Part shown: one piece after another, positions 1-60,808 of the stretch | Position numbering within the stretch: the stretch's first letter is position 1 | Layout of the letters: each line of letters begins with the position of its first letter | DNA from: an uncultured Acidobacteriota bacterium | Lineage (GTDB): Bacteria; Acidobacteriota; Thermoanaerobaculia; Multivoradales; UBA5704 | Direction: 5' to 3' | DNA: 64,000 bases | Assembly: GCA_963700145.1 (NCBI GenBank) | Contig: OY969474.1 | Coordinates: 544,001 to 608,000 of the forward strand | Notes under the pieces: generated by a model | What the model saw: the letters and a program-made list of their open reading frames with translations, nothing else | Database searches by the model: none | Told to the model about the DNA's origin: nothing | Translations under genes and position numbers: made by a program

Positions 1-692
1 AGATCGCCCTGGAGCCGATCGCGCTGCCAGAGCGCGAAGTCGGCGTACTGGATGGGGAGCTCCGGCAGCGGCGAGACGTGGCCCGCGTAGAAGGCCTGGT
101 AGAGAGCGGTCAGCTCCCACGTCCAGATGCCGCTCGACCATCCGTCACAGGCGATGTGATGCAGGACGGAGAGCAGGATGTGCTCCTGCGGACCGAGTCG
201 CAGCAGCAGGTTGCGCACGAGCGGTCCGCACGCCAGGTCGAAGGGCCGCCGCAGCTCCGCGTCGACGATCCGGCGCGCCTCGGTCTCGCGCTCAGAGGGC
301 GCCAGGAGCGAGAGATCGACGAAGGGGAGCCGCGCCGGGCGGAAAGGCTGCACGCTCTGCAGAGGTTCCTCGGCGTCGGAGCGGACGACGGTGCGCAGCG
401 CTTCGTGCCGGCGCACGATCTCGTCGAGGGCGCTCTTCAGGGCCGCCGGCGCGAGGCGGCCGGTCAAGCGGAAGGGCAGAGGCACCTGATAGACGCCGCT
501 GCCGGGCTCGAGCTGCTGGAGAAACCAGACGCGGCGCTGCGCGAACGAGAGCGGCATCTGGCCGGTGCCGGGAGCCCGCCGGGGGATCGGGAAGCGCGAC
601 AGATCGATACCCTTGTCGCGCAGGATCTGAGCGAGCCGCCGGTACTGGTCGGGAGGCAGCGCGGCGATGTCGGCGGGGAGCTGCTGGCTCAT
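1..692 (-). CDS. NRPS, N-terminal condensation domain (partial, continues past left edge)
   Basis: Manual translation from ATG 692 (ATGA overlap with the upstream NRPS stop): MSQQLPADIA...PLSFAQRRVWFLQQLEP...SVLHHIACDGWS...ELPIQYADFA. Absent from the ORF track because there is no stop in the window. Confidence 0.93.
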   Translation of the reverse strand, partial: MSQQLPADIAALPPDQYRRLAQILRDKGIDLSRFPIPRRAPGTGQMPLSFAQRRVWFLQQLEPGSGVYQVPLPFRLTGRLAPAALKSALDEIVRRHEALRTVVRSDAEEPLQSVQPFRPARLPFVDLSLLAPSERETEARRIVDAELRRPFDLACGPLVRNLLLRLGPQEHILLSVLHHIACDGWSSGIWTWELTALYQAFYAGHVSPLPELPIQYADFALWQRDRLQGD

Positions 693-3600
693 CGCAAGAG
701 CCCCTGGACCTCGTGGTCCAACTCCGACCTGGCCTCGGCCAGGATCTGCGCGATCGCGAGGTCCTCGTCGCGCACGGCGGCGCGCGACTCCTCCATCTGG
801 CGGGCGGTGGCGGCGATGGTGGGTGCTTCGAGGAAGCGTCGCAGCGGGATCTCGACGCCGTGGCGGCTGCGGAGGCGATTGAGCACCTGGGTGGCGAGCA
901 GGGAGTGACCGCCGAGATCGAAGAAGCTGTCGTGGCGGCCGGCCCGTTCGATGCGCAGGACGCCCTGCCAGACCTCGGCGACGGTCTGTTCGAGCTCTGT
1001 GCGGGGGGGCTCGAAGCTGTCGGCGGCGAGCGAGTGGAGCTCGGCGGGCTTCTCCAGGGCGTGGCGGTCGATCTTGCCGCTGACCGTGCGCGGCAGCGCC
1101 GCGAGCTGGACGAAGGCGGAGGGGACCATGGGCTCGGGCAGCCGGGCGCGCAGAAACTCCCCGAGCTGCGGCAGGGCGGCGGCGGCGAAGCCGCGCAGCG
1201 GCTTGTTGGTCAGCTCGCGCCGGTGCGCGGCGGGTGGCGGGGCAGGGAGGGCTACGGGCCGGGGGAGGGAGGGGGACTGGCCGGGTGGGCGGCTCTGCAG
1301 CACCAGGTCGAACGAGCCGTTCGCCGCGGCGCCCGTCCACAGCAGCTCGACGCTATAGGGGAGCTGTGCCGTCAGGTCCCAGAGGTTGGCAGGGTCCACC
1401 CAGTCCCGGGGAGGCGGCTGCGCGAGCGCCTGGCGCAGGTCGCCCACGGTCTCGGGGGCACCGTCGCCGTCGAGCCAGGCTGCGGTGCGCAGCGCCTCGG
1501 CCAGGCGGGCGTTGGGCACGCTGGTGAAGCCGAGCGCCTCGGGGCGGCCGTCGGCCAGGTGCCGGCGCAGGCTCTCGAGGTCCATGCCGGCCGCGCGCCA
1601 GTCGCGCCAGGCGACGTCGCGGCGCGCCGGCAGTGCCGGCTCGAGCAGCAGGATGGCGTCGTACTGGAAGCGGTTGATCTCGTTGGGAGAGCGCCCGCCC
1701 TTGGGCAGGATGCGCAGATGAGCGGGGCGCGGCAGCTCGCGCACGACCTCGGCAAACAGCGCCGGGTCGATCACCAGGTCCTTGTCCTGGAGCAGGCTGT
1801 CCTCGACGCGGCGCCGCAGCTCGGCGCGGCCGAGGCGCGGATCGGCGGCCTGCGCGAGCTGCACCGAGGCATGGAAGGCGCGCAGCAGCGGCAGGCTGCG
1901 CACGCCACCGACGAAGACGGCGCCGCCGGGGGCGGTGAGGCGCACCGCCTCGGCCACGGCGTCGCGCAGGTACTGCTCGTCGGGGAAGTGCTGTGTCACC
2001 AGGTTGAAGACCACGGTGTCGAACGAGCCATCGGGCAGATCGCCGAGCTCGTGGGCGGCGCGGCGCTCGACGGCGACGCCCGGCAACGGCGGGACGAGGG
2101 AGGCAAGCCGGCGGCGCAGGAAGCCCACCGCGGTCTCGGAGATGTCCGTTGCGAGATAGCTGGCGCAGTGCGGAGCGACGCGGAACAGCAAGAGCCCCGT
2201 GCCGGCGCCGATCTCGAGCACCCGCCCAGGACGCAGGGCGAGGATGCGTGCCACGGAGTCGTCGATGCTCTCGAGCACCTCCGCCTCGGGCAGCGCGCGG
2301 TGGGTGTAGCTGCTGGTCCAGGAGCGGGTATTGATGTTGTGATCGACCGCCGAGTAGGCCGGATCGAGGGCGTAAATCTCGTCGTAGAGGCTGCGGGTCT
2401 GCGCGATGTAGTCGGTGCGCAGGCCGGCGCCGTCCCCCGGACCGAGCGAGCCCAGCGAGTCCAGTGCCACGTAGGCCACCAGGCGCAAGTCGCCCTGGCC
2501 GTAGTCGTGGGCCGCCACCGCCGCCTCCTCGACCGCCGGATGGCAGCGCAGGGCGGTCTCGATCTCGCCCAGCTCGACGCGGTTGCCGCGCACCTTGACC
2601 TGCTGGTCGCGGCGGCGCAGGAAGACGAGACTGCTGTCGGGAAGCCAGCGTCCCAGGTCGCCGGTGCGGTAGAGCCGCCCGCCGGCGCCGCCCAGCGCGT
2701 CGGGCACGAAGCTCGCCGCCGTCTCGGCCGGCCGGTCGAGATAGCCGTCGGCCAGGTGCGCGCTGCGGATGTGGATCTCGCCCGGCACCCCGCGCGGGGC
2801 CGGTTGACCGTGGCGGTCGAGCAGCACGACGTGCCGGCCCTCGAACGCACGGCCCACCGGAACCGAGGCCTGGCGGCGGTCCGCCACCAGCACCGGATGC
2901 CAGGTGGCGAGCACGGTCTCCGATGGACCGTAGAGGTTGTACAGCCGCGGCGTCGCGGGGAAGCGCTCGAGCCAGGAGGCGGCTAGCTCGCCGCGCACCG
3001 CCTCACCCGCCAGCAGCAGGGCGGCGAGAGCGGGGAAGGGGTGATTGCCATCGTCCTCGCCCAGGCTCTGCAGCAGCTGCTGCGCGAAGCTCGGCACGAC
3101 CTGCAGCAGCGTCACCTGCTCGGCGCAGAGCCAGACCGCCAGGGCCGCCGGGTCGAACCGCAGCGACGGCTCGGCCATGCACAGCGTCGCCCCGAGGCAG
3201 AGCGCGCCGAAGATCTCGCAGTAGGACGCGTCATAGCCGCACGAGGCCCACTGTGCGAAGCGCTGGTGCGGCGCGATGGCGAAGGGCTTGCCCTGGCAGA
3301 GCACGAACTGACTGAAGCTGCGGTGGGACTCGACGATCCCCTTGGGCCGGCCGGTGGAGCCGGAGGTGTAGGCGACGTAGGCGGGCTGGGCCGGGTCGAC
3401 CTCCACCAGCGGCCGGGTCGCGGGCAGCGCATCGAACCCCGCGAGGTCCACGACTGGCCAGTCGCCGCCCTCGGCGAGCGCCGGGTGCTGGCGCAACGAC
3501 GAGGCGTCGGTCAGCAGCGCGCCGGCCGAGGCCTCGGCCAGCACCTGCGCGAGCCGCGCGGTGGGCTGGCGCGGGTCGAGGCAGACAAAGGCGCAGCCGG

Positions 3601-6600
3601 CCTTGAGGACGCCGAGCAGGGCGGCGACCTGCTGCGGCGCGCTCGGCAGCAGCACCGCGACGCGGCGGGCCGCCCCCAGCCCGAGCCCGAGCAGGCCGTG
3701 GGCCACGCGGTTGGCGCGCCGGTCGAGCTCGCCGTAGCTGACCTCCACCCCCTCGCAGCTCACCGCCACCACGTCTACCTGGCGGTCCACCCAGCTCTCG
3801 AAGAGGCGGTGCAGGCAGGTGTCGGGATAGAGCTCCGGCAGCCGGTGGTCCCACTGCGCGAGCAGCTGCCGCCTCTCCTCGGCATCGAGCAGCGCAACGT
3901 CCCAGAGGCGCTGATCTGGGTCCTCCACGATCCCTTCGAGCAGCAGGACGAAATGCCGGAGCATCTGCTCGATGGTCGATCTCTCAAACAGGTCCGCCGC
4001 GTACACCCCCTGGCACTCCAGCTCCTCCTCCCCAGGCGTCTCCCACAGATTGACCGTCAGGTCGAAGGTCGACATCCGATTGTCGATCTCCCAGACGCTC
4101 CAACGGACGCCGCCGGCCCGCTGCTCTCCCTCTTGGGTCGCCGGCTGGTGGAACAGCACTTGGATGAGCGGTTGTCGGCTGAGGTCGCGCTCGGGCCGCA
4201 ACGCCTCCACCAACCGCTCGAATGGCAGGTCCTGGTGGACATAGGCCTCGAAGGTAGTCTTCTTCGTCTGTGCGAGAAGCTCCCCAAAGCGAGGATGCCC
4301 GTCGAGCTGCACGCGCAACACCAGAGTGTTGACGAAGAAGCCGATCAGGGACTCGAGCTCGGGACGGTTGCGGTTGGCGATCGGACATCCCACCGCGAAG
4401 TCGTCCTGATCGGTGTACCGATGCAGCAGCGCCTCGAAGGCGGCGAGCAGCACGATGTAGAGCGTCGCTCCCGCGCGCCGCCCCAGCTCCCTCAGCCGCG
4501 CCACCAGCTCCCCGGACAGCGGCCGCGACAGCCGACCGCCGCGGTAGCTCTGCACCGCCGGCCGCGACCGGTCTGCCACCAGCTCGAGCCCCGGCAGCCC
4601 CGCGAGCTGCCCGCGCCAGTACTCGAGCTGCCTCGCCATTTCCGCCTCGCGCCCGTGCTGCCATTCGGCGAAGTCCGCGTACTGGATCGGCAGTGCCGCG
4701 AGCGGTGACGGCGCGCCCGCCACGAACGCCGCGTAGAGCGCCAGCAACTCGCCGTAGAGCACGCCGATCGACCAGCCGTCGGCCACCACGTGATGCATCG
4801 AAAGGATCAGGACGTGGTCCTCCGGCCCCAGGCGCAGGAGGAGAGAGCGGAAGAGCGGGCCACAGGTCAGAGCGAAGGGACGGCGCACCACGCCTTCGGC
4901 AACGCGGCGTGCCTCCGCCTCGCGCGCCGCACCGGACAGATCCCTCAGCTCCAACCGCGGGAGGCGCAGCGCAGCGTAGGGGGCGATTACCTGAACCGGC
5001 TGCCCGCCGGTTGCGTCGAAGGCGGTGCGTAGCACCTCATGCCGCCGGACGATCTCGTTTAGCGCACGCTCCAACGCCGCCACGTCGAGCGAGCCCCGCA
5101 GCCGCCGCGCCGTGTGCAAGTTGTACACGGCAGAGCCGGGCGCCAACTGGTCTAGGAACCACAGACGGACCTGGGCAAACGACGGGCGGGCGCGCTCTGC
5201 GGCCGGCCAGCGAGGGGCGATCGGCAACAGCGACGGATCCAGACCCTCCCGACGAAGCAGCTCCTCCGCTTGATGCGCGGTGGCGGCGATGGTGGGTGCT
5301 TCGAGGAAGCGTCGCAATGGGATCTCGACGCCGTGGCGGCTGCGGAGGCGATTGAGCACCTGGGTGGCGAGCAGGGAGTGACCGCCGAGGTCGAAGAAGT
5401 TGTCGTGGCGGCCGGCCCGTTCGATGCGCAGGACGCCCTGCCAGACCTCGGCGACGGTCTGTTCGAGCTCTGTGCGGGGGGGCTCGAAGCTGTCGGCGGC
5501 GAGCGAGTGGAGCTCGGCGGGCTTCTCCAGGGCGTGGCGGTCGATCTTGCCGCTGACCGTGCGCGGCAGCGCCGCGAGCTGGACGAAGGCGGAGGGGACC
5601 ATGGGCTCGGGCAGCCGGGCGCGCAGAAACTCCCCGAGCTGCGGCAGGGCGGCGGCGGCGAAGCCGCGCAGCGGCTTGTTGGTCAGCTCGCGCCGGTGCG
5701 CGGCGGGTGGCGGGGCAGGGAGGGCTACGGGCCGGGGGAGGGAGGGGGACTGGCCGGGTGGGCGGCTCTGCAGCACCAGGTCGAACGAGCCGTCCGCCGC
5801 GGCGCCCGTCCACAGCAACTCGACATCGTAGGGGAGCTGCGCCGCCAGGTCCCAGAGGTCGGCGGGATCGACCCAGGCCTGGGGCACCGGCTCGGCGAGC
5901 ATCTCGCGCAGGCCTCCCACGGCCTCGGGGGCACCGTCGCCGTCGAGCCAGGCCGCGGTGCGCAGCGCCTCGGCCAGGCGCGCGTTGGGCACGCCGGTGA
6001 AGCCGAGCGCCTCGGGGCGGTCGTCGACCAGGTGCCGGCGCAGGCTCTCGAGGTCCATGCCGGCGCGCCAATCGCGCCAGGCGACGTCGCGGCGCAGCGG
6101 CTGCGCCGGCTCGAGCAGCAGGATGGCGTCGTACTGGAAGCGGTTGATCTCGTTGGGGGAGTGCCCGCCCTTGGGCAGGACGCGCAGATGAGCGGGGCGC
6201 GACAGCTCGCGCACGACCTCGGCAAACAGCGCCGGGTCGATCACCAGGTCCTTGTCCTGGAGCAGGCTGTCCTCGACGCGGCGCCGCAGCTCGGCGCGGT
6301 CGAGGCGCGGGTCGGCGTGCGCGAGCTGCACCGAGGCGTGGAAGGCCCGCAGCAGCGGCAGGCTGCGCACGCCGCCGACGAAGACGGCGCCACCGGGAGC
6401 GGTAAGGCGCACCGCCTCGGCCACGGCCTCGCGCAGGTACTGCTCGTCGGGGAAGTGCTGCGTCACGAGATTGAAGACCACGGTATCGAACGAGCCGGCG
6501 GGCAGATCGCCGAGCTCGTGGGCGGCGCGGCGCTCGACGGCGACGCCCGGCAGCGGCGTCGCGAGCGCAGCGAGCCGGCGGCGCAGGAAGCCCACCGCGG

Positions 6601-9600
6601 TCTCGGAGATGTCCGTTGCGAGATAGCTGGCGCAGTGCGGAGCGACACGGAACAGCAGCAGCCCGGTGCCGGCGCCGATCTCGAGCACCCGACGGGGGCG
6701 TAGGGCGAGGATGCGCTCGACCGAGTCCTCGATACTCTCGAGCACCTCCGGCTCGGGCAGGGCGCGGTGCGTGTAGCTGCTGGTCCAGGAACGGGTGTTG
6801 ATATTGCCGTCGACCGCGGAATAGGCCGGATCGAGGGCGTAGATCTCGTCGTAGAGGCTGCGGGTCTGCTCGATGTAGTCGGCGCGCAGGCCGGCGCCGT
6901 CCCCCGGACCGAGCGAGCCCAGCGGGTCCAGCGCCACGTAGGCCACCAGACGCAGGTCGCCCTGGCCGTAGTCGTGGGCCGCCACCGCCGCCTCCTCGAC
7001 CGCTGGGTGGCAGCGCAGGGCGGTCTCGATCTCGCCCAGTTCGACGCGGTTGCCGCGCACCTTGACCTGCTGGTCGCGGCGGCGTAGGAAGACGAGACTG
7101 CCGTCGGGAAGCCAGCGTCCCAGGTCGCCGGTACGGTAGAGCCGCCCACCGGCACCGCCCAGCGCGTCGGGCACGAAGCTCGCCGCCGTCTCGGCCGGCC
7201 GGTCGAGATAGCCGTCGGCCAGGTGCGCGCTGCGGATGTGGATCTCGCCCGGCACCCCGCGCGGGGCCGGTTGGCCATGGCGGTCGAGCAGCACGACGTG
7301 CCGGCCCTCGAACGCACGGCCCACCGGAACCGAGGCCTGGCGGCGGTCCGCCACCAGCACCGGATGCCAGGTGGCGAGCACCGTCTCCGACGGACCGTAG
7401 AGGTTGAACAGGCGCGGCGTCGTGGGGAAGCGCTCGCGCCAAGAGATGGCCAGCTCGCCGCGCACTGCCTCGCCCGCCAGCAGCAGGGCGGCGAGAGCCG
7501 GGAAGGGATGACCGCCGCCGCCATCGCCCAGGCTCTGCAGGAGCTGCTGCGCGAAGCTCGGCACGACCTGCAGCAGCGTCACCTGCTCGGCGCAGAGCCA
7601 GACCGCCAGGGCCGCCGGGTCGAACCGCAGCGACGGCTCGGCCATGCACAGCGTCGCCCCGAGGCAGAGCGCGCCGAAGATCTCGCAGTAGGACGCGTCA
7701 TAGCCGCACGAGGCCCACTGTGCGAAGCGCTGGTGCGGCGCGATGGCGAAGGGCTTGCCCTGGCAGAGCACGAACTGACTGAAGCTGCGGTGGGACTCGA
7801 CGATCCCCTTGGGCCGGCCGGTGGAGCCGGAGGTGTAGGCGACGTAGGCGGGCTGGGCCGGGTCGACCTCCACCAGCGGCCGGGTCGCGGGCAGCGCATC
7901 GAACCCCGCGAGGTCCACGACTGGCCAGTCGCCGCCCTCGGCGAGCGCCGGGTGCTGGCGCAACGACGAGGCGTCGGTCAGCAGCGCGCCGGCCGAGGCC
8001 TCGGCCAACACCTGCGCGAGCCGCGCGGTGGGCTGGCGCGGGTCGAGGCAGACGAAGGCGCAGCCGGCCTTGAGGACGCCGAGCAGGGCGGCGACCTGCT
8101 GCGGCGCGCTCGGCAGCAGCACCGCGACGCGGCGGGCCGCCCCCAGCCCGAGCCCGAGCAGGCCGTGGGCCACGCGGTTGGCGCGCCGGTCGAGCTCGCC
8201 GTAGCTGACCTCCACCCCCTTGCAGCTCACCGCCACCACGTCTGCCTGGCGGTCGGCCCAGCTCTCGAAGAGGCGGTGCAGGCAGGTGTCGGGATAGAGC
8301 TCCGGCAGCCGGTGGTCCCACTGCGCGAGCAACTGCCGCGTCTCCTCGGCATCGAGCAGCGCAATCTCCCAGAGGCGCCGCTCCGGGTCCGCGACGATGC
8401 CCTCAAGCAGCAGGACGAAGTGCCGCAGCATCTGCTCGACCGTCGACCCCTCGTAGAGGTCCGCCGCGTACACCCCCTGGCACTCCAGCTCCTCCTCCCC
8501 AGGCGTCTCCCACAGATTGACCGTCAGGTCGAAGGTCGACATCCGATTGTCGATCTCCCAGACGCTCCAGGTGAGGCCCGCGGTTTGCCGTTCCTCCTGC
8601 GAAACGGACTGGAGGTGGAACAGCACCTGGACGAGCGGCTGACGGCTGAGGTCGCGCTCGGGCCGCAACGCCTCCACCAGCCGCTCGAACGGCAGGTCCT
8701 GGTGAGCGTAGGCCTCGAAGGTGGTCTTCTTGACCTCGTCGAGGAGCTCGGCGAACCGCGGGTGCCCCGCGAGCTGCGCGCGCAGGACGAGCGTGTTGAC
8801 GAAGAAGCCGATCAGGGGCTCGAGCTCGGGACGGTTGCGGTTGGCGATTGGACATCCCACCGCGAAGTCGTCCTGATCGGTGTACCGATGCAGCAGCGCC
8901 TCGAAGGCGGCGAGCAGCACGATGTAGAGCGTCGCTCCCGCGCGCCGCCCCAGCTCCCTCAGCCGCGCCACCAGCTCCCCGGACAGCGGCCGCGACAGCC
9001 GGCCGCCGCGGTAGCTCTGCACTGCCGGCCGCGAGCGGTCCGCCACCAGCTCCAGCCCGGGCAGCCCCGCGAGCTGCCCGCGCCAGTAGTCGAGCTGCGC
9101 CGCCATCTCCGCCTCGCGCCCGTGCTGCCACTCGGCGAAGTCCGCGTACTGGATCGGCAGCTCCCGGAGCGGTGACGGCGCGCCCACGACGAACGCCGCG
9201 TAGAGCGCCAGAAGCTCGCCGTACAGCACGCCGATCGACCAGCCGTCGGCCACGACGTGGTGCATTGCCAGGATCAGGACGTGGTCGTCCACCGCCAAGC
9301 GCAGCAGCAGAGGTCGGAACAACGGCCCGCGGCTCAGCGCGAAGGGACGCCGCACCGCGCCTTCGGCGACCCGCCGCGCCTCCGCCTCGCGCGCCCTGGC
9401 CGGGAGCCCCCAGAGGTCGAACCGCGGCAGGCGCAGCGCCGCGTGCGGCGCGACCACCTGCACCGGCTGCCCGCCGGTTGCATCGAACGCGGTGCGCAGG
9501 ACCTCGTGGCGCCGCACCACCTCGTCGAGGGCACGCTCCAACACCGCCACGTCGAGCGAGCCCCGCAGACACCGCGCCGTGTGCAGGTTGTACACCGGCG

Positions 9601-9805
9601 AGCCCGGCGCCAACTGATCCAGGAACCACAGACGGATCTGGGCAAAGGACGCCCGAGCACGCTCCCCGCCCGACTCCCGCCGCGGAATCGGCAGCAGCGA
9701 CGGATCCAGCCCCTCCCGACGCAGCAGCTCCTCCAGCAGGCGGCGCTTGTCGCCGGCAAGAGCGCTCGGGGTCGTCGGCGTTCGGTTGGTGAGCTCGCCG
9801 CGCAT
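689..9805 (-). CDS. Bimodular NRPS C-A-nMT-T-C-A-nMT-T (~3038 aa)
   Basis: Two copies each of HHVVADGWS, YTSGSTGRPKG, LYRTGDL, VLEIGAGTG (SAM-binding MT inserted in A), SGKIDR and FFDLGGHSLLA. True start is ATG 9805 (MRGELTNR), overlapping the MIO-gene stop (TGATG). Confidence 0.95.
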   Translation of the reverse strand: MRGELTNRTPTTPSALAGDKRRLLEELLRREGLDPSLLPIPRRESGGERARASFAQIRLWFLDQLAPGSPVYNLHTARCLRGSLDVAVLERALDEVVRRHEVLRTAFDATGGQPVQVVAPHAALRLPRFDLWGLPARAREAEARRVAEGAVRRPFALSRGPLFRPLLLRLAVDDHVLILAMHHVVADGWSIGVLYGELLALYAAFVVGAPSPLRELPIQYADFAEWQHGREAEMAAQLDYWRGQLAGLPGLELVADRSRPAVQSYRGGRLSRPLSGELVARLRELGRRAGATLYIVLLAAFEALLHRYTDQDDFAVGCPIANRNRPELEPLIGFFVNTLVLRAQLAGHPRFAELLDEVKKTTFEAYAHQDLPFERLVEALRPERDLSRQPLVQVLFHLQSVSQEERQTAGLTWSVWEIDNRMSTFDLTVNLWETPGEEELECQGVYAADLYEGSTVEQMLRHFVLLLEGIVADPERRLWEIALLDAEETRQLLAQWDHRLPELYPDTCLHRLFESWADRQADVVAVSCKGVEVSYGELDRRANRVAHGLLGLGLGAARRVAVLLPSAPQQVAALLGVLKAGCAFVCLDPRQPTARLAQVLAEASAGALLTDASSLRQHPALAEGGDWPVVDLAGFDALPATRPLVEVDPAQPAYVAYTSGSTGRPKGIVESHRSFSQFVLCQGKPFAIAPHQRFAQWASCGYDASYCEIFGALCLGATLCMAEPSLRFDPAALAVWLCAEQVTLLQVVPSFAQQLLQSLGDGGGGHPFPALAALLLAGEAVRGELAISWRERFPTTPRLFNLYGPSETVLATWHPVLVADRRQASVPVGRAFEGRHVVLLDRHGQPAPRGVPGEIHIRSAHLADGYLDRPAETAASFVPDALGGAGGRLYRTGDLGRWLPDGSLVFLRRRDQQVKVRGNRVELGEIETALRCHPAVEEAAVAAHDYGQGDLRLVAYVALDPLGSLGPGDGAGLRADYIEQTRSLYDEIYALDPAYSAVDGNINTRSWTSSYTHRALPEPEVLESIEDSVERILALRPRRVLEIGAGTGLLLFRVAPHCASYLATDISETAVGFLRRRLAALATPLPGVAVERRAAHELGDLPAGSFDTVVFNLVTQHFPDEQYLREAVAEAVRLTAPGGAVFVGGVRSLPLLRAFHASVQLAHADPRLDRAELRRRVEDSLLQDKDLVIDPALFAEVVRELSRPAHLRVLPKGGHSPNEINRFQYDAILLLEPAQPLRRDVAWRDWRAGMDLESLRRHLVDDRPEALGFTGVPNARLAEALRTAAWLDGDGAPEAVGGLREMLAEPVPQAWVDPADLWDLAAQLPYDVELLWTGAAADGSFDLVLQSRPPGQSPSLPRPVALPAPPPAAHRRELTNKPLRGFAAAALPQLGEFLRARLPEPMVPSAFVQLAALPRTVSGKIDRHALEKPAELHSLAADSFEPPRTELEQTVAEVWQGVLRIERAGRHDNFFDLGGHSLLATQVLNRLRSRHGVEIPLRRFLEAPTIAATAHQAEELLRREGLDPSLLPIAPRWPAAERARPSFAQVRLWFLDQLAPGSAVYNLHTARRLRGSLDVAALERALNEIVRRHEVLRTAFDATGGQPVQVIAPYAALRLPRLELRDLSGAAREAEARRVAEGVVRRPFALTCGPLFRSLLLRLGPEDHVLILSMHHVVADGWSIGVLYGELLALYAAFVAGAPSPLAALPIQYADFAEWQHGREAEMARQLEYWRGQLAGLPGLELVADRSRPAVQSYRGGRLSRPLSGELVARLRELGRRAGATLYIVLLAAFEALLHRYTDQDDFAVGCPIANRNRPELESLIGFFVNTLVLRVQLDGHPRFGELLAQTKKTTFEAYVHQDLPFERLVEALRPERDLSRQPLIQVLFHQPATQEGEQRAGGVRWSVWEIDNRMSTFDLTVNLWETPGEEELECQGVYAADLFERSTIEQMLRHFVLLLEGIVEDPDQRLWDVALLDAEERRQLLAQWDHRLPELYPDTCLHRLFESWVDRQVDVVAVSCEGVEVSYGELDRRANRVAHGLLGLGLGAARRVAVLLPSAPQQVAALLGVLKAGCAFVCLDPRQPTARLAQVLAEASAGALLTDASSLRQHPALAEGGDWPVVDLAGFDALPATRPLVEVDPAQPAYVAYTSGSTGRPKGIVESHRSFSQFVLCQGKPFAIAPHQRFAQWASCGYDASYCEIFGALCLGATLCMAEPSLRFDPAALAVWLCAEQVTLLQVVPSFAQQLLQSLGEDDGNHPFPALAALLLAGEAVRGELAASWLERFPATPRLYNLYGPSETVLATWHPVLVADRRQASVPVGRAFEGRHVVLLDRHGQPAPRGVPGEIHIRSAHLADGYLDRPAETAASFVPDALGGAGGRLYRTGDLGRWLPDSSLVFLRRRDQQVKVRGNRVELGEIETALRCHPAVEEAAVAAHDYGQGDLRLVAYVALDSLGSLGPGDGAGLRTDYIAQTRSLYDEIYALDPAYSAVDHNINTRSWTSSYTHRALPEAEVLESIDDSVARILALRPGRVLEIGAGTGLLLFRVAPHCASYLATDISETAVGFLRRRLASLVPPLPGVAVERRAAHELGDLPDGSFDTVVFNLVTQHFPDEQYLRDAVAEAVRLTAPGGAVFVGGVRSLPLLRAFHASVQLAQAADPRLGRAELRRRVEDSLLQDKDLVIDPALFAEVVRELPRPAHLRILPKGGRSPNEINRFQYDAILLLEPALPARRDVAWRDWRAAGMDLESLRRHLADGRPEALGFTSVPNARLAEALRTAAWLDGDGAPETVGDLRQALAQPPPRDWVDPANLWDLTAQLPYSVELLWTGAAANGSFDLVLQSRPPGQSPSLPRPVALPAPPPAAHRRELTNKPLRGFAAAALPQLGEFLRARLPEPMVPSAFVQLAALPRTVSGKIDRHALEKPAELHSLAADSFEPPRTELEQTVAEVWQGVLRIERAGRHDSFFDLGGHSLLATQVLNRLRSRHGVEIPLRRFLEAPTIAATARQMEESRAAVRDEDLAIAQILAEARSELDHEVQGLLR
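800..9735 (-). repeat. Tandem direct duplication of a whole NRPS module, period ~4.47 kb
   Basis: Same sequence at 808 and 5281 (offset 4473). Identical shadow ORFs 3112..3432 and 7579..7899 (offset 4467). EELLRREGLDPSLLPI occurs at both module starts. Confidence 0.93.
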
Positions 9806-11319
9806 CAAGACAGTTCCCGCACCCAACGACCCGCGCTCGCGCTGAACAGCTCCCGGGCGGCCTCGATGTCGGTGCTCATCACCCGGTCCTCTTCCAGGAA
9901 CGGGATACGCGCGCGCAGCTCGCGGAATACCTCTTCGGTGGCCGGCGAAAGCCGCAGTGGCTCGTTGAGATCGATGGCCTGGCAGGCGGTCATCAGCTCG
10001 ATGCTCATGACGTACTCGCAGTTGTCGAGGATCTGAGCCAGCTTGTGGGCGGAGGTCCCGCCCATGCTGACGTGGTCCTCCTGGAGCTGGCAGGTGGGAA
10101 TCGTGTCGACGCAGGCCGGCGTGGAGAGGACTTTGTTCTCGTTGACCAGCGCGGCCGACGTGTACTGGGAGATCATGAGCCCGGAGTTGATCCCTGGCCG
10201 CTTCACCAGGAAACTCGGTAGGCCGCGCTGTCCCGACAGGAGCTGATACGTCCGCCGCTCGGAAATGCTCGCCAGCTCGCTGATCGCCATGCAGGCAAAG
10301 TCGAGCACCAGCGCCGTCGACTCGCCGTGCAGGTTGCCGCCGAACAGAACCTCGTCCTGCTCGGGGAAGAACAGTGGGTTGTCGGAGACGCTGTTGCACT
10401 CCCGCTCGACCACCTCGCGGGCGAAGCCGACGGCTTGGCGTATGGCGCCGTGGATCTGGGGAATGCAGCGGAAGGAGTAGGGGTCCTGCATCGACTGGTT
10501 GCAGGTCGGCAGCTCGAAGTGGTTGCTTCCCGCCAGCAGCGAGCAGAGGTTGCCCGCCACCACCCGGCGCTCTTCGTGGAGAGAGGTGGTGTGGTAGAGC
10601 GGGTGATAGAAGGTGCGCGAGGCGCTGAACGCTTGGATGCTCAGTGCCGCCAGCAGGTCGGCGGCCTTGGACAGCAGCGCGCCGCGATCCAGGGCGTGGG
10701 CGGCCCAGCCGTTGATGTACTGCACGCCGTTGGTCAGGGCCAGACCCTCCTTGGGCCGCAGGCGCAAAGGCTCCCAACCCATGGCGGGCAGTACGTCACG
10801 GGCATCCTCGACGCGGCCTTGGAAGTGGACTCGCCCCAGTCCCAGCAGCGGCAACGCCATATGGGCCAGGGGCGCCAGATCGCCGCTGGCGCCGACGGTT
10901 CCCTTCTTCGGGATCGCCGGGATCACGCCGCGGTTCCAGTGCTCCAGCAGGCGCTCGACGGTCGGTCGCGAGATGCCGGTGTGACCGCTGCGGAAGGTGA
11001 GGAGCTTCACCAGCAGGACGAGGCGCGAGATCCTCTCGGGCACCAGCTCTCCGACCCCGCAGGCGTGGGACACCACGTGGTTGTACTGCAGCCGCTCCAT
11101 CTCCCCCGCCGGGACCCGGGTCTCGCAGAGCGAGCCGAAGCCGGTGTTGACGCCGTAGAGGTAACGGTCCTCCGCGGCCTTGGCGTCGACGAAGCGGGCA
11201 CCGCCGTCGATGCTGTCGGCGACCTCCGGGGAGAGCCGCAGCTCGGGCGGGTCCTCGGCGAGGCGGCAGAGCTCGTCGATCGAGTAGCGATGCAGATCGA
11301 TGAGATGAGTCGTGGCCAT
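9805..11319 (-). CDS. MIO-dependent aromatic amino acid lyase/aminomutase with histidine-type (HAL-like) signatures
   Basis: YGVNTGFG loop, GTVGASGDLAPL (ASG forms MIO), VVSHACGVG, QDPYSFRC, QEDHVSM. Start ATG 11319 (MATTHL). Confidence 0.9.
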   Translation of the reverse strand: MATTHLIDLHRYSIDELCRLAEDPPELRLSPEVADSIDGGARFVDAKAAEDRYLYGVNTGFGSLCETRVPAGEMERLQYNHVVSHACGVGELVPERISRLVLLVKLLTFRSGHTGISRPTVERLLEHWNRGVIPAIPKKGTVGASGDLAPLAHMALPLLGLGRVHFQGRVEDARDVLPAMGWEPLRLRPKEGLALTNGVQYINGWAAHALDRGALLSKAADLLAALSIQAFSASRTFYHPLYHTTSLHEERRVVAGNLCSLLAGSNHFELPTCNQSMQDPYSFRCIPQIHGAIRQAVGFAREVVERECNSVSDNPLFFPEQDEVLFGGNLHGESTALVLDFACMAISELASISERRTYQLLSGQRGLPSFLVKRPGINSGLMISQYTSAALVNENKVLSTPACVDTIPTCQLQEDHVSMGGTSAHKLAQILDNCEYVMSIELMTACQAIDLNEPLRLSPATEEVFRELRARIPFLEEDRVMSTDIEAARELFSASAGRWVRELS

Positions 11320-11335: not shown

Positions 11336-13594
11336 CTACGGCGCACCTTCGCCGCTCGTCACGGGCGCGTCGGCGTTCTCCGCTCGCTGTCCTTCGAGGA
11401 ACGCCTTGACCTCCTCCGCCGACAGTCTGGCGACCAGCTCGGCCAGCCGCTCGACGCGGCCGGCGTCGGCGACCGGTTTGCCCGTCGCCGCGAGGTGCCG
11501 GGCGAGCCGGGCCGGGCTCGGATGCTCGAAGAGACGGTGGGCATTGATCGAGACGTGCAGCCTCTGGCCCAGACGCGAGACGATCTGAGTCGCGAGCAAG
11601 GAGTCCCCGCTCAGCTCGACGAAGTCGTCGTGAACCCCGACCGGCGTGAAGCCGAAAACCTCCTGCCAGGCGGCGACGATCTGCGTCTCCATCTCGTTCC
11701 GAGGTGCCGTGTAGGGAGTCGACAGGGACGGGCGCGGGCGCGCTCCGGGCGCCGCGACGTTCGCCGCCACCGCGGTGGCATCCGGAGCGGAGCGCGCCGC
11801 GGGCGGGGACTGCACCTCGTAGCGCTGGCGCTGGAAAGGATAGGTGGGAAGCGGTATGCGCCGGCGGCGCCGGCCGGCATGGCGGCGCGCGAAATCGACG
11901 TCGGCTCCCGCGACCCAGAGATAGCCGAGGCTGGCGAGGTCCTCCGACGCCTCGGTGTCCGCGGGCAGCGTCGCGACGGCGACCGTGGCCTGGCCGAGGT
12001 CCTGCGCCAGGGCGGGCAGGTGCCGCGCTCTGACTTCGCCGTTCAGCATGCGAGCGGCGTCGTCGAGGACTGCGCCGAGGCCGGCGGTGTCGCGGTATAC
12101 CGCGGCGCGCCGGCGGCCGAAAGCCCGGCGCCCCGTCTGCAGCGTGTACGCGAGGTCCGACGGATCGACCTCCGGGTGAAGCTCCAGATGGCGCCGTAGA
12201 CGTCGCGTCATCTCTTCGAGGGCCGCGTCGTCGCGGGCCGACAGGACCAGGAGGTGCCATGAGTCCACGGCCGTCGCGGCCTGCTGCGCGGGAGCTTCTT
12301 CGAGGACGACGTGGGCGTTGGTGCCGCCGACGCCGAACGAGCTGACGCCGGCGCGGCGGGGAGAGGCGACGGCCGGCCATGCGGAAAGTCTCGCGTTGAC
12401 GAAGAACGGGCTGTCCTCGAGCGAGATGTCCGGGTGGAGGGACTCGAAGTGGAGGACGGGCGGCAGCTCGCGATGCTCGAGAGCGAGCGTGGCCTTGATG
12501 AGGCTGGCGATGCCCGCAGCCTCGTCCAGGTGTCCCACGTTGGGTTTGCTCGAGCTGAGGGCGCAGAACCCTCGCGCCGCGGTGGAAAGGCGGAACGCGC
12601 GGGTCAGGGCGGCGACCTCCATCGCGTCCCCGAGCGGTGTGCCGACGCCGTGCGCCTCGACGTAACCGATCGTCTCCGCGGGGATCCCGGCGGCGCCGAG
12701 CGCCAGGGTGACGACCTCCGCCTGGCCTTCGACGCACGGGGTGGTGAACCCCGGCTTGCCCGCCCCGTCGTTGTTCACGGCCGAGCCGCGGATGACGGCG
12801 CGTATCGGGTCGCCGTCGGCGACGGCGTCGGAGAGGCGCTTGAGGAGGACCAGCCCGGCCCCGTTGCCGTGGACGGTGCCCACCGCCCGCCGGTCGAAGG
12901 GGCGGCAGCGGCCGTCCGGCGAGAGGGAGAGACCCTCGCGGTAGAGATAGCCCCGCGGCTGCGGGAAGAAGATGGAGACACCTCCGGCCAAGGCCATGTC
13001 GCAGTGGTAGTCGAGCAGGCTCTGACACGCGAGGTGAACGGCGACCAGAGAGGTGGAGCAGGCGGACTGGAGGGCGATGCTGGGCCCCCGCAGGTCGAGC
13101 TTGTAGGAGAGGCGCGCCGTCAGGCTGCCGCCGTCCACCAGGGCCAGCGGTCCTTCCAGGAGCTCCAGCTTCTGCTCGAGCGACATCCGGCTCTCCAGGT
13201 AGGTACTCGGGCCTGCGCCGGCGAACACGCCGATGGCGCCCGCGTAAGCGGCGGGGTCGTAGCCGGCGCTCTCGAGCGCTTCCCAGGCGCACTCCAGGAT
13301 CAAGCGGTGCTGGGGATCGAGCATCTCCGCTTGGCGGGGCGGGATGCCGAAGAAGGGGGCGTCGAACAGAAGGGGGTCCTCGAGCACTCCTCCGGCTTTG
13401 ACGTAGTCGCTCCGCGCGAGCAGCTCGCGGCGGACGCCGGCCGCCGCCAGCTCGGAGTCGCTGAAGAAGCTGATGGACTCCACGCCGTCGCGCAGATTCC
13501 GCCAGAACGTCTCGGGGTCCGACGCTCCGGGGAAGCGGCAAGCCATGCCGATGATGGCCACGCCCTCCAGCGCCGCTTCCGAAGCGCTGTTCAT
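11336..13594 (-). CDS. Type I PKS module KS-ACP lacking an AT domain
   Basis: VAIIGMACRFPG, QSACSTSL (Cys), EAHGVGT and NVGHL (His, His), SSFGVGGTNAH, LPTYPFQRQRY linker, LSGDSLLA carrier. No GHSxG AT motif; only 752 aa. Confidence 0.9.
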   Translation of the reverse strand: MNSASEAALEGVAIIGMACRFPGASDPETFWRNLRDGVESISFFSDSELAAAGVRRELLARSDYVKAGGVLEDPLLFDAPFFGIPPRQAEMLDPQHRLILECAWEALESAGYDPAAYAGAIGVFAGAGPSTYLESRMSLEQKLELLEGPLALVDGGSLTARLSYKLDLRGPSIALQSACSTSLVAVHLACQSLLDYHCDMALAGGVSIFFPQPRGYLYREGLSLSPDGRCRPFDRRAVGTVHGNGAGLVLLKRLSDAVADGDPIRAVIRGSAVNNDGAGKPGFTTPCVEGQAEVVTLALGAAGIPAETIGYVEAHGVGTPLGDAMEVAALTRAFRLSTAARGFCALSSSKPNVGHLDEAAGIASLIKATLALEHRELPPVLHFESLHPDISLEDSPFFVNARLSAWPAVASPRRAGVSSFGVGGTNAHVVLEEAPAQQAATAVDSWHLLVLSARDDAALEEMTRRLRRHLELHPEVDPSDLAYTLQTGRRAFGRRRAAVYRDTAGLGAVLDDAARMLNGEVRARHLPALAQDLGQATVAVATLPADTEASEDLASLGYLWVAGADVDFARRHAGRRRRRIPLPTYPFQRQRYEVQSPPAARSAPDATAVAANVAAPGARPRPSLSTPYTAPRNEMETQIVAAWQEVFGFTPVGVHDDFVELSGDSLLATQIVSRLGQRLHVSINAHRLFEHPSPARLARHLAATGKPVADAGRVERLAELVARLSAEEVKAFLEGQRAENADAPVTSGEGAP

Positions 13595-16500
13595 GCAGGG
13601 CTCCGGGAGAGTTGCGGCGGGCGCCGGCGGAGCCTTGCCTCGCGCTGCCTGGCGGCCCTCGCCAGCGCCGCCGGGAGCTGCGAGCCGGCGAGTGCCCCCG
13701 GCGCCGGCGAAGCCTCCAGATAGGCGGCGAGGGACTCGATCGTCGGTTGCTCCAGCAGCTCCAGCATCGACAGCTTGCGGCCGAGCCTCGCGGCGATGTG
13801 GGACCGCACCCGGGCCAGGAGCAGAGAGTGACCGCCGAGGTCGAAGAAGCTCTCCGCCGTGCTCACCTCCGGCAGCTCCAGCACCTCCATCCAGATGCCG
13901 GCCAGCGCCGTCTCGACGGCGCCCTGCGGCGGCGAGGGGGGGCGCGCGTAGAGCGGGCGTGCACTCGCAACCGGTAGCGCGCGGCGGTCGACCTTGCCGT
14001 TAGGAGTCAGCGGCAAGGCGTCGAGCGGCACGAACAGCGCCGGCAGCATGTAGTGCGGCAACCGCTGCCGGAGGAAGTCCCGTAGCTCGTCGGTGGCCGG
14101 AGGCTCATCACCCTTCTCGGCGACCAGGTAGGCGATCAGGCGCCGACCGCCGCCCGCGTCGTCGGCGGTGACGACCGCGGCCTGGACGACAGCCGGATGC
14201 GCGACCAGGGCGGACTCGATCTCGCCGAGCTCGATGCGGAAGCCGCGGACCTTGACCTGGCGGTCCGTGCGGCCCAAGAACTCCAGCCTGCCGTTGGGCC
14301 GGTAGCGGGCTCGGTCACCGGTGCGATAGAGGCGCGCTCCGGGTTCGCCGCCGAGCGGGTGCGGGACGAACGCCGCCGCCGTCAGATCGCCACGCCCGAG
14401 ATAGCCTCGCGCCAGCCCCTGACCGCCGATGTAGAGCTCGCCCGGCACTCCCAGCGGCGCGAGCGCGAGCCCGTCGTCGAGAACGAGGAGGGAGGTGTTG
14501 GCGACGGGCCCCGCCACCGGCACCGGACCCGCGCCGCGCTCCACGCGGTGGGCCGCCGACCAGATCGTGGTTTCGGTGGGCCCGTAGAGGTTCCAGAGGC
14601 TCTCGCCGCGGCTCGCCAGCGCCTCGGCGAGCTCGCGCGGAAGCGCCTCACCGCCGCACAGCAGCCGCAGGCCTGGCCGGCCCGACCAGCCGGCCTCGAG
14701 GAGCAGGCGCCAGGTGGCGGGCGTACCCTGCAGGACCGTGGCGCCGCTCTCCTCGAGGAGAGCGGCGAGACGGCCGCCGTCGCCGGCTTCGTCGGCGCGG
14801 GCCAGCACCACGCGTGCCCCGACGCTCAGCGGGAGAAAGAGCTCCAGGCCGGCGATGTCGAAGCTCGGCGTCGTCACCGCCAGCAGGACGTCGCCAGGCG
14901 TGAGCCCCGGCCGCTCGGCCATCGAGCCGAGGAAGCTCACCACGGCGCGGTGCACGATCTCGACCCCCTTGGGCGTTCCCGTGGAGGCCGAGGTGTAGAT
15001 CACGTAGGCCCGGTGGTCGGCTCCCGCCCCACCGTCATGGTGGGAGTCGCTCCAGGCCGCCACGGCCGCGGCATCGGAGTCCAGGCAGACCCGGCGGTGT
15101 GCTCCGGGGAGGCCCGCGAGGCGGCTCTCGGTGATCAGGACGGCGTTGCGGGAGTCCACGAGCATGTGCTCGACGCGGTGCCGCGGATACCCGGGATCGA
15201 TGGGGACGTAGGCGCCTCCCGCCTTGAGCACGCCGAGCAGCGCCACGAGCAGCTCGAGGGAGCGCTCAAGGCAGACGCCGACGAGGACGTCCGGCCCGAC
15301 GCCGAGAGACCGTAGATGGCGTGCCAGCCGGTTGGCCCGGCGGTCCAGCTCACCGAAGGTGAGGCACGCGTCGGCACAGGCCGCGGCCACGGCGTCGGGG
15401 CGGCGGCGAGCCTGGTCCTCGAAGAGCTGATGCAGGCAGTCGGGCCGCGGTCCGACCACCGCGGTGTCGCTCCACTCCGTCAGGAGCTGGTGCTGCTCGG
15501 CCTGGCTCAGGAGCGCGAGCTCCTGGATGCTCACCTCCGGCTGGGCGATGGCGCTCTCCAGAAGGCGTTGGTACTGAGCCGCCAGGCGGGCGACGGTCGG
15601 CGGCGCAAAGAGATCGGTGCTGTACTCCCACTCGAGGAGGGTCTGCTCGTCCTCGGCCCGTGGGACACGGCCGATGCGCTGCTCCGAGCGCGGTGTCACG
15701 ATGACGTTGAGGTCGAACTTGGCCGAGCCGTTGTGCGGATATTCGATGCGTCCGCTCAGCTCCCCGAAGTCCAGGTCCGGCATCGGAGCGTCGTGGAAGC
15801 TGAACATCACCTGGAAGATCGGGTTGAAGCTCGCGTGACGCTCCGGCCGCAGCTCCTGGACCAGACGATCGAAGGGAAGGTCCTGGTGGGCGAAGGCCTC
15901 CAAGGTGACCTGGTGGACACGGGCCAGCACCTCACGGAACGAGGGGGTGCCCGACAGATCGACGCGCAAGGCCAGGTTGTTGATGATCATGCCGAGGATG
16001 CGCTCGGTCTCACGCCGCCGCCGTCCGGCGACCACCGTACCCACCACCAGGTCGGCGCTGCCGTTGTAGCGGTGGAGGAGGGCGTCGAACGCCGCCAGGA
16101 GCACCATGAACGGAGTGGCGCCGCAGCGGCGGCCGAGCTCGCGGGCCGACGTGAAGAGACCGGGTCGCATCGGTTCCTTGTGGACGGCGCCGCGGAAGCT
16201 CTGCGCCGCGGGCCGCGGGGCGTCGGAGGGGAGCTCGGTCACTCCCGGGATGCCTGCCAGCTTCCGTTTCCAGTACTCGAGCTGCAGGGCGGCGGCTGCG
16301 CTCTGGAGCCACTCCCGCTGCCAGACGGCGTAGTCGGCGAACTGCAACGGCAGCTCCGGCAGCGGAGAGGCGGAGCCGGAGGAGATGGCGCGATACAGCT
16401 CTTCGATCTCACCGAGCAGCAGAGCCATCGACCAGCCGTCGTGGAGAAAATGGTGCTCGACCTGGACCAGCAGGTGCTCGCGCGGGCCGAGGCGCAGCAG

Positions 16501-19028: not shown

Positions 19029-19376
19029 GTGAACGAACTGGTACAGAGGTTGACGCAGGAGCAGTCCATCGTCGCGAGCCTTCGGCCGGAGCCCTCGTTA
19101 GATGCTCTCAAGGCCGCGCTGGACCGCGGCTATATACACGTCAAGTTCATCGAGACGCGTGGCGGCACCGAGCTTGGGATCCGTCTCGACCGGGAGAGCA
19201 GCGACCTTTCGGGGGCGAACTTCGAACAGGGCATCGGGAGCGTACGGATCGTCGGCAGTTTGGTCCTCGACTACGTGCCGGTCCGGTTCCGCGGGCATCT
19301 CGACCTGGAGAGCCTGAAGGGAACGGGCAGGCTCGAGCCCGAGGGGGAAGGCGATGAGAGCGGAGGCCGATCGTGA
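19029..19376 (+). CDS. NRPS-cluster accessory protein of the family often annotated 'MbtH domain protein' (not a canonical MbtH)
   Basis: GTG after GAGGAG. MNELVQRL...RGYIHVKFIETRGGTELGIRLD resembles, from recall, a small family found beside or fused to MbtH in NRPS clusters. Confidence 0.65.
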   Translation: MNELVQRLTQEQSIVASLRPEPSLDALKAALDRGYIHVKFIETRGGTELGIRLDRESSDLSGANFEQGIGSVRIVGSLVLDYVPVRFRGHLDLESLKGTGRLEPEGEGDESGGRS

Positions 19377-21635: not shown

Positions 21636-22639
21636 GTGAAACCACTCGTCCAGCTCGCCGGCATCGACGTCAGCGCCCGCTCCCTCACCGTCGTGGTCGA
21701 GCCGCCCGGCAGCGGCCGCGAGCGTCTCGAGTTCGCCAATGACGCCGCCGGGCACCGTCAGCTCATCCGGCGCCTCGGCAAGCAGGGTCGGCACGCGCGC
21801 GTGGCTCTCGAGGCCAGCGGCATCTACAGCCTCGATCTGGCCATGGCTCTGCACCGCGCCCCCCGCATCGAGGTCATGGTGATCAATCCACGGGCCGCCC
21901 GCGACTTTGCCAAAGCCTTCCTGCAGCGCTCGAAGACCGACGCCCTCGATGCCGAGGTCCTGCTCGAGTTCGTCCGGCGCATGCCCTTCCAGCCCTGGCA
22001 GCCGCCACCCACCGAGGCTCTCGAGCTCCGGGCCGTCACCCGCCGCATGGCCGCCCTGATCAAGGCCCGGAGCCAGGAGAAAAACCGCCTCCACGCCGCC
22101 CGCCACTGTCATGAGCTGAGCGATCTCGTGCGCCACGACATCGAGGTCAATCTCCGTCATCTCGACCGCCGCATCGCACGCCTCGAAGAGCAGGCCGTCG
22201 ACTTGGTCTGGGAGCACCCTGAGCTGCGCCGGGATCTTCTCCACCTGACCTCGGTCCGCGGCATCGCCCGCACCAGCGCGGTCCAGATCCTCGCCGAGCT
22301 CAGCGTGCTGCCGCCGGACCTCTCGGCACGCCAGTTGGTGGCCCATGCCGGCATCGACCCGCGGGCTTCGAGTCCGGCGAGTCGGTCGCCAAACCGGCCC
22401 GGATCTCGCGCGTCGGCAACCGCTACCTGCGCGCCGCGCTCTACATGCCTGCCCTGGTCGCCTCGCGCTACGAGCCCCATGTCAAAGCCTTCTACGACAT
22501 GCTCATCGCCCGCGGCAAAAAACCGAAGCAGGCGCTGGTGGCGGTCATGCGCAAGCTCCTGCACTCGATCTACGGCATGCGCAAACACGGCTGCGATTTT
22601 CAGGGGGAGAAGTTCTTCGCCATGCCCCAGGAGGCTTGA
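21636..22639 (+). pseudogene. IS110 recombinase/transposase, frameshifted near 22365
   Basis: GIDVS, VALEASGIY, KTDALDA in one frame. After GIDPR the frame shifts to FESGESV...GNRYLRAALYMPA...GKKPKQALVAVMRKLL. May be a sequencing indel. Confidence 0.85.
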
Positions 22640-42933: not shown

Positions 42934-43037
42934 TGTCGAAGGCTCCTTTCCTAACGGGTCCCCTCAGGCGCCCAGACCCCCACCAAAGCGGCAGGCTGCG
43001 GGCGAGTTTGAACGTCTACTGCTTGGTCGCTGGAATG

Positions 43038-43053
43038 AGCAACGCATGTGCCA
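43038..43053 (-). promoter_or_regulatory. sigma54 (-24/-12) promoter of the multicopper oxidase
   Basis: Minus strand TGGCAC-ATGCG-TTGCT, correct spacing, ~105 nt upstream of ATG 42933. Confidence 0.8.
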
Positions 43054-43449
43054 CGGGAAGGCGGCGCGCAGCGCTGCGCCGCGCCGGCGATTCACGAACG
43101 CGATCCAACTCTTTCGGTGTCGGCGGTTTACGCGGGCCAGCCCCGGTCTCTCCCGCGGCTCCGCGGAGGTCGTCGCAGCCGTCTTCGCCGGCTGAAAGGA
43201 GCGCTCCGCCGTCCAGATCCTGAATCGGTTCCGGCGCCGCTTCCAGAATTTGGAAGGACTCGACCCCCGAGTGGCGGACGAGCCCGTCGGCTCGTCCCCC
43301 TCCCGCCTGCGGCGCGCACTGTGCTTGTGACTCGGTCAAGGCTATGCCGTCCCGCGAGCCTTCGAGGCTCCGCCCGCCGTTCCCCCCGCAAGGCGTATCC
43401 CTTTCGCCCCGAGGACGAGCCGCGTAATCCCAGCGATCCGAGGAGACCG

Positions 43450-60475: not shown

Positions 60476-60504
60476 TTGACAAATACCCCCTAGGGGTAAA
60501 TGGT
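60476..60504 (+). promoter_or_regulatory. sigma70 promoter overlapped by a CsoR operator
   Basis: TTGACA (60476-60481) followed by TACCCCC-T-AGGGGTA (60484-60498), the G/C-tract inverted repeat typical of CsoR/RcnR sites. Confidence 0.8.
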
Positions 60505-60511
60505 TCGCGCC

Positions 60512-60808
60512 ATGACGAACCAGACCCCAGCCCAGGGCGAGGCCGGCAAAGCGGAGCTGCGGCGGCGGCTCGCCCGCATCGAGGGACAGGTGCGTGGAAT
60601 CGCCCGCATGCTCGAGGAGGACCGCTACTGCGTCGAGGTGCTGACCCAGCTCGCGGCGGTCCACCAGGGGCTGCGCGAGGTGGCGCGCGAGCTCCTCTCC
60701 CAGCACATGCAGACCTGCGTCCGCCGCGCCTTCAGCGCCGGCGACGCCGCCCAGCAGGCGCGGGTGGTCGAGGAGCTGGCCGAGCTGGCGTTCAAGTACA
60801 GCCGCTAG
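60512..60808 (+). CDS. csoR: CsoR-family metal-sensing repressor
   Basis: RRLARIEGQVRGIARM, RYCVEVL, HMQTCV (Cys-His-Cys ligand set). Confidence 0.9.
   Translation: MTNQTPAQGEAGKAELRRRLARIEGQVRGIARMLEEDRYCVEVLTQLAAVHQGLREVARELLSQHMQTCVRRAFSAGDAAQQARVVEELAELAFKYSR

Follow-up and report, generated by a model that had tools for sequence, protein, structure and literature searches.

In the C-1027 gene cluster, a stand-alone adenylation (A) enzyme adjoins an enzyme bearing the 4-methylideneimidazole-5-one (MIO) cofactor; we take these two to be SgcC1, specific for beta-tyrosine, and SgcC4, although the record names them only as an AMP-binding protein and a tyrosine 2,3-aminomutase. Other beta-amino-acid A enzymes, i.e., VinN, IdnL1, CmiS6, HitB, and engineered TycA, keep Asp235 and have a beta13-beta14 loop that is one residue shorter (PMC11253843, cited, like the other papers below, from its accessible text). 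In VinN, the short loop is combined with bulky residues at positions 236 and 301 (F231 and S299), bulky residues also stand opposite the loop in the others, and the natural enzymes of this group are stand-alone starters (PMC11253843). MIO aminomutases are known for phenylalanine and tyrosine, and the accessible text of a 2022 review reports no genome evidence for one acting on histidine (PMC9002059). The habitasporin and chondramide lines likewise place an MIO aminomutase beside a modular nonribosomal peptide synthetase (NRPS) responsible for incorporating beta-Phe or beta-Tyr, both of them aromatic beta-amino acids, and the accessible description of these lines mentions no methylated beta unit (PMC9802438). 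Here, we analyzed a stretch of 64,000 nucleotides from an uncultured Acidobacteriota bacterium (contig OY969474.1, positions 544,001 to 608,000; hereafter, the window), in which a minus-strand operon combining NRPS and polyketide synthase (PKS) genes encodes an MIO enzyme derived from histidine ammonia-lyase (HAL) together with an NRPS containing two duplicated A domains. In contrast to the natural enzymes of the VinN group, these domains occupy internal positions, and each has a methyltransferase inserted into it. Judging from sequence, they very probably load some beta-amino acid, and we lean, with less assurance, toward a histidine 2,3-aminomutase supplying two methylated beta-histidine units.

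Short loop, pocket code, and relatives of the duplicated A domains

The motif YGPSETVLATW begins at positions 7399 and 2932 of the minus strand, both within one open reading frame (ORF), while the two other A domains of the window contain the longer motifs YGLTEGTVTAT (at 17805) and YGPTETTIWSA (at 14586). All four motifs were located as given in a preliminary description of this DNA, which had read from them a one-residue deletion in both duplicated copies. The gap was scored with a position matrix covering PheA positions 328-337 and derived from 820 of the 881 A domains that served as background (150 long multidomain proteins obtained by a profile-library search contained 883 domains, 2 of which lacked the anchor Glu). 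One deleted residue was favored by 34.3 bits in both copies, compared to scores of -12.9 and -10.0 for the other two A domains of the window. Only 1 of the 881 background domains scored as high, and it is itself a member of the same A clade. Multiple sequence alignments agree with the matrix in showing a loop shorter by one residue. The optimal placement is at position 328 (YGPSE-TVLAT), one place to the left of that first proposed; V330 and L331 are unaffected by this choice.

The pocket, previously read by hand as approximately D-A-C-Q-L-A-L-V/L-K, has the ten-residue code DACQLALVLK, with seven positions taken from the computed alignment and 330, 331, and Lys517 from reading the sequence. 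It could not be matched to a standard code because it is shared by many uncharacterized relatives. Asp235, the expected amine binder, is kept in all four A domains of the window. The T-V-L of the short loop is close in size and character to the Xaa-Leu-Val tripeptide of engineered TycA (PMC11253843). Sequence searches of the PDB with two queries both listed PheA, engineered TycA, and IdnL1, and one of them also CmiS6; VinN was not among the 60 matches listed in either, and a 67-residue query gave no match. In the LgrA alignment from these searches, the Val module shows the gap and the second module is aligned without it. For the predicted A-domain structure (predicted local distance difference test score of 87), alpha and beta enzymes tied (Z 44-48) in a fold comparison made at the level of whole domains, which does not resolve individual loop residues.

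The same short loop is present in 53 of the best 120 A-domain matches, with the codes DACQLAL, DVCQLVV, DA[V/A]Q, and DARNL. A plasmid search retrieved SgcC1 (NZ_CP013739.1, locus L081), which carries the gap at the same position (YGPTE-TIAATWH, 38.4 bits), is 45% identical to the window A domains, and has in common with them an AQW motif before Asp235. Its code, DPAQLMLIAK, shares Gln278, Leu299, and Leu322 with the window code but has Pro236 and Met301, and SgcC1 differs further in having no methyltransferase. In an IQ-TREE phylogeny of 34 taxa, computed after deleting the loop columns, SgcC1 and the other short-loop domains, 16 in all, formed one clade (92.7/96), and Pro-type domains fell outside the SgcC1-containing clade. 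The duplicated A domains thus appear to work like a beta-amino-acid enzyme and to belong to the SgcC1 clade; they are not assigned to the VinN type because residues 236 and 301 are Ala/Ala. Proline specificity was also considered and rejected, given Leu322 instead of His322, a DACQ rather than a DVQ-type code, and a clade separate from the Pro-type domains.

Two further groups of short-loop domains came up among these relatives. In locus L001 (11652-17393) and about 25 proteins from the A-domain search, a short-loop domain is followed by a Val235 domain, presumably of the beta-Ala type, with a joining condensation (C) domain lacking HHxxxDG. These pairs look like tandem beta-amino-acid modules; several are from Chloroflexi, and a subset carries the Asp-like short-loop code DARNL. 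Short-loop domains (DASGQAL, DATQLAL) also occur in Streptomyces and Kitasatospora plasmid clusters (L082:10897-13503, L083:8206-16491, and L084:8866-13101), in whose examined stretches no MIO enzyme was found.

The MIO enzyme and its association with the A clade

In the PDB, the MIO enzyme matches solved HALs best, at 348 bits compared to 258 bits for tyrosine aminomutase. It passed the PRK09367 HAL model (557.6 versus a cutoff of 524), narrowly missed the hutH equivalog (535.3 versus 539.15), and clearly missed the models for tyrosine aminomutase (TIGR03832; 341 versus 501) and phenylalanine aminomutase (TIGR04475; 329 versus 800). An Atlas search returned generic lyase clusters. Together with its best 120 matches (63-90% identity) and two genome loci, the window enzyme forms a clade of 123 members on a long branch (support of 1.0), apart from 78 ordinary HALs. 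The window enzyme retains the MIO triad as well as the catalytic Tyr, Asn, and Arg, with equivalents of Tyr53, His83, Asn195, Tyr280, Arg283, Met382, and Glu414 of HutH (PDB 1GKM). Ser-His, Met382, and Glu414 are given as HAL features in PMC11432326; Ser84-His85, Met382, and Glu414 occur in 123/123 clade members, and the ordinary HALs carry His85, Met382, and Glu414 in 78/78 cases and Ser84 in 75/78. SgcC4 differs in having Ala and Gln at the equivalents of Met382 and Glu414. What sets the clade apart from HutH is the active-site Phe329, conserved in all 78 ordinary HALs and replaced by Leu330 in all 123 clade members, as well as Leu79, which is His in 113 of the 123.

A genome scan yielded at least 80 loci, among which at least two (L001 and L002) belong to the clade. 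In L001 (Ca. Leptofilum), the MIO enzyme lies immediately upstream of an NRPS whose first A domain has the code DACQLALVLK; in L002, it is found within an NRPS-PKS cluster, on a contig equal in size to that of A-clade member P0031. No A domain was present in the flanks of the ordinary HAL loci (0/78), 49 of which include a urocanase. Unlike HutH, the clade enzyme sits in NRPS operons in the three loci examined, and no urocanase was found in L001, in L002, or among the window ORFs scanned. Co-occurrence was also estimated by exact equality of contig sizes with 119 lyase matches, an indirect proxy that compares lengths only. Same-size contigs were found for 8 of 52 A-clade proteins versus 0 of 66 other NRPS matches in a first set, and for 10 of 58 versus 0 of 177 in an extended set (Fisher p of 4e-7, uncorrected for kinship). 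All ten matched A-clade proteins have Cys239-Gln278, compared to none of the 16 DARNL or DA[V/A]Q members, and Phaselicystis flava yields both an A-domain match and a lyase match. The lyase clade is also carried by Stigmatella sp. ncwal1 and Allonocardiopsis opalescens.

Taken as predictions from sequence and context, beta-amino-acid adenylation is well supported by the SgcC1 kinship and the co-occurrence with the lyase clade, and not by the gap alone; genomic context is the stronger evidence. The deletion had been called typical of beta-amino-acid adenylation, a view that these two lines sustain but that has to be narrowed, since the loop is also short in Pro-type domains and the opposing residues are Ala/Ala. 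Similarly, the loop does differ in kind from the lyase as evidence for an aminomutase, although its two copies count only once, their A cores being 96.7% identical.

Methylation, substrate, and alternative readings

The methyltransferase of each module is an insertion of approximately 390 residues between motifs a8 and a9 with an S-adenosylmethionine motif, features on which it fits type I of PMC8341866. However, it reads RSW, NLVTQHFP, and NEINRFQY in place of type I motifs i (GWxS), iv (NSxxQYFP), and vi (NELxxxRY), and GGVR in place of the usual GDVR. The type III O-Tyr motifs GxGxxA and WLPV, as given in the accessible part of PMC8341866, were not found in the window methyltransferase sequence. 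A comparison of 151 methyltransferase domains, with 14 lacking a readable loop set aside, revealed the Gly form (GGVR) in 10/10 domains that follow a short-loop A domain versus 26/127 others; this form otherwise accompanies DSALIAEVWK, DVYYLGG, and DIWE-type codes. The best solved relative is 5WMM, which we take to be TioS. The window methyltransferases belong to a 21-member group (0.958) including three domains attached to DSALIAEVWK, a His-specific code according to PMC12283262. In corramycin module 3, an embedded N-methyltransferase has likewise been proposed for histidine side-chain methylation, although that module loads alpha-L-His (PMC10099666). The evidence points to methylation on a nitrogen other than the alpha-amine, i.e., the imidazole or the beta-amine. 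The GGVR domains form a subgroup of 37 (support of 0.996) that is paired with DVYYLGG, DIWE-type, and His codes and may represent a type of side-chain N-methyltransferase not yet catalogued. A decayed methyltransferase was rejected since 8 further short-loop modules carry identical changes.

In the pathway that we propose, the co-transcribed MIO enzyme would convert L-histidine into beta-histidine by moving its amino group from C2 to C3. In each duplicated A domain, Asp235 would hold the beta-amine and the short loop would accommodate the extra carbon, by analogy with SgcC1 and beta-tyrosine, to which loop and kinship connect it; the inserted methyltransferase would then methylate the tethered unit at the imidazole or beta-amine. 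The predicted chain order is Arg-like, Gly, a possible ketide (only if an acyltransferase [AT] acts in trans), methyl-beta-His, and methyl-beta-His, before continuing beyond the window. Because Asp235 is kept and the modules are internal, an amine substrate is required, and urocanate is therefore excluded as an extender. Among the candidate substrates listed in the preliminary description, beta-His fits best.

Several observations weigh against this proposal. The short loop does not by itself signal a beta-amino acid because it also occurs in 18 of the 20 domains classed as Pro-type by their DVQ/His322 pattern, which we take to be proline specific, and these 18 are among the 44 of 881 background domains with a gap score of at least 5 bits. 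The Ala/Ala pair at 236 and 301 lacks the bulky-residue hallmark of the VinN type, and all engineered beta-Phe TycA variants carry A236V (PMC11253843). No acidic residue lines the DACQLALVLK pocket, unlike the His code with its Glu322. In a FastTree phylogeny of 129 taxa, the clade with SgcC1 was recovered at only 0.67. No same-size contig was found for 48 of the 58 A-clade proteins among the 119 lyase contigs compared, and 1 of 77 ordinary-form methyltransferase domains sits on a His code. SgcC4 also carries Ser-His and Tyr386, a switch that does not separate His from Tyr, so these residues do not exclude tyrosine. Finally, loop dynamics are reported to decide between lyase and mutase, which residues cannot separate (PMC9002059).

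In one alternative, which we consider unlikely, the substrate of the modules is beta-Tyr or beta-Phe, supplied by an aminomutase that evolved separately from a HAL ancestor. The residues common to the MIO enzyme and SgcC4, the pocket devoid of acidic residues, and the fact that the sole characterized A relative at hand is SgcC1, with Gln278, Leu299, and Leu322 in common, would all suit such a substrate. Yet Met382 and Glu414, invariant in the MIO clade, are HAL-like and not tyrosine aminomutase-like, both aminomutase models were missed widely, and the methyltransferase lacks the type III O-Tyr motifs. It is improbable, too, that the MIO enzyme acts as a genuine ammonia-lyase, providing urocanate for another step, and that the beta-amino acid loaded by the modules is a different one from elsewhere. 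Its score with the PRK09367 model and its HAL matches in the PDB agree with a lyase, and no link to the lyase was seen for ten A-clade members of the DARNL type, six of the DA[V/A]Q type, and three actinomycete plasmid loci, which suggests that the clade handles several substrates; however, the same-size contig matches all fall on Cys239-Gln278 codes, the window revealed no urocanate-type ligase, and its four A domains all retain Asp235. Least probable of the three is loading of an alpha-amino acid such as L-His, with another role for the short loop as in Pro-type domains: Ala236 and Ala301 are alpha-type residues, and a Pro236-to-Ala change in SgcC1 reportedly relaxes beta-selectivity (a report that we did not find in print), but the A domains lie outside the Pro clade and lack His322, DACQLALVLK is unlike the known His code, and an alpha substrate would leave a dedicated MIO enzyme without a role. 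We therefore retain beta-histidine as the favored, if moderately held, assignment.

Operon architecture and significance

The operon genes, whose coordinates are listed in Table 1, overlap or nearly touch their neighbors, in the order starter NRPS, ketosynthase-acyl carrier protein (KS-ACP), MIO enzyme, 3038-aa NRPS, and another NRPS that extends past the edge of the window.

Table 1. Features of the NRPS-PKS operon (window coordinates; T, thiolation domain; MT, methyltransferase)
Feature	Position	Strand	Remarks
Starter NRPS, A-T-C-A-T	13591..18822	-	Start codon approximate; A codes DVENVGAVTK (Arg-like) and DILQLGLIWK; full-length loops
KS-ACP, no AT domain	11336..13594	-	Catalytic Cys, His, His present
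MIO enzyme, HAL-derived clade	9805..11319	-	ASG at 10882-10890; proposed histidine 2,3-aminomutase
NRPS of 3038 aa, [C-A(MT)-T] x2	689..9805	-	Single ORF; ATG overlaps stop codon of MIO enzyme
A core 1	6923..8269	-	Code DACQLALVLK; Asp235 codon at 7699
Short beta13-beta14 loop YGPSETVLAT, A copy 1	7370..7399	-	
Methyltransferase copy 1, between a8 and a9	5678..6922	-	Type I variant: RSW, NLVTQHFP, GGVR, FQY
A core 2	2465..3802	-	Code DACQLALVLK; Asp235 codon at 3232
Short loop YGPSETVLAT, A copy 2	2903..2932	-	
Methyltransferase copy 2	1208..2464	-	90% identical to copy 1
Next NRPS, C domain first	1..692	-	Runs off the window

The second A domain of the starter NRPS is presumably of the Gly type and has TSASTG as its motif A3. 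The code of the first is close to the Arg consensus of PMC12283262, and the C domain downstream of this Arg-like module contains the unusual motif EHHFLHDGWS (16455, minus strand). The KS-ACP lacks an AT, and the window ORFs scanned include no stand-alone one; it must therefore either rely on a trans-acting AT encoded elsewhere or simply hand the chain onward. By their sequences, the two C-A(MT)-T modules are the product of one recent duplication, with 92.5% DNA identity and protein identities of 96.7% for the A cores, 90% for the methyltransferases, and 86% for the C domains; an assembly artifact was rejected on the basis of this DNA identity and of synonymous differences inside the loop motif. 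Both duplicated A domains read FLRRRDQQVK at motif A8 (near 7030 and 2570, minus strand), where Arg replaces the usual Gly. At the head of the cluster lies a small divergent ORF (19029-19376, plus strand) whose sole Pfam match, to CBF_beta, is weak, and an IS110-family transposase domain (21657-22097, plus strand) is located about 3 kb upstream. A multicopper oxidase, CusB/CusA-type efflux genes, and a metal-sensing repressor (40549-48005 and 60500-60808) are 20-40 kb distant.

The short loop by itself is a known feature. In the literature searched, we found no description of its combination with an altered HAL-type enzyme and a methyltransferase, nor of beta-histidine as a peptide building block. 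DACQLAL and DACQLALVLK were not found in the open literature searched, with most subscription papers outside this scope; within the searchable literature, beta-His together with aminomutase led only to PMC9002059, and SgcC1, partial codes, and HAL in NRPS clusters to nothing relevant. None of six code prefixes was found in the supplement of PMC12283262, whose tables may be pictures.

The locus provides a specific candidate for a histidine aminomutase, which has over 120 relatives, along with an adenylation code to match. It is an even question whether these represent a widespread family of HAL-derived histidine 2,3-aminomutases which, with the beta-His code DACQLALVLK and the variant methyltransferase, builds tandem methylated beta-His peptides in Acidobacteria, Chloroflexi, myxobacteria, and actinomycetes. 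If the histidine aminomutase assignment is true, the enzyme would offer a biocatalytic route to beta-His and the A domains a new nonribosomal code, beta-selectivity would be reachable without bulky residues at 236 and 301, and many genes labeled as histidine ammonia-lyase would need correction.

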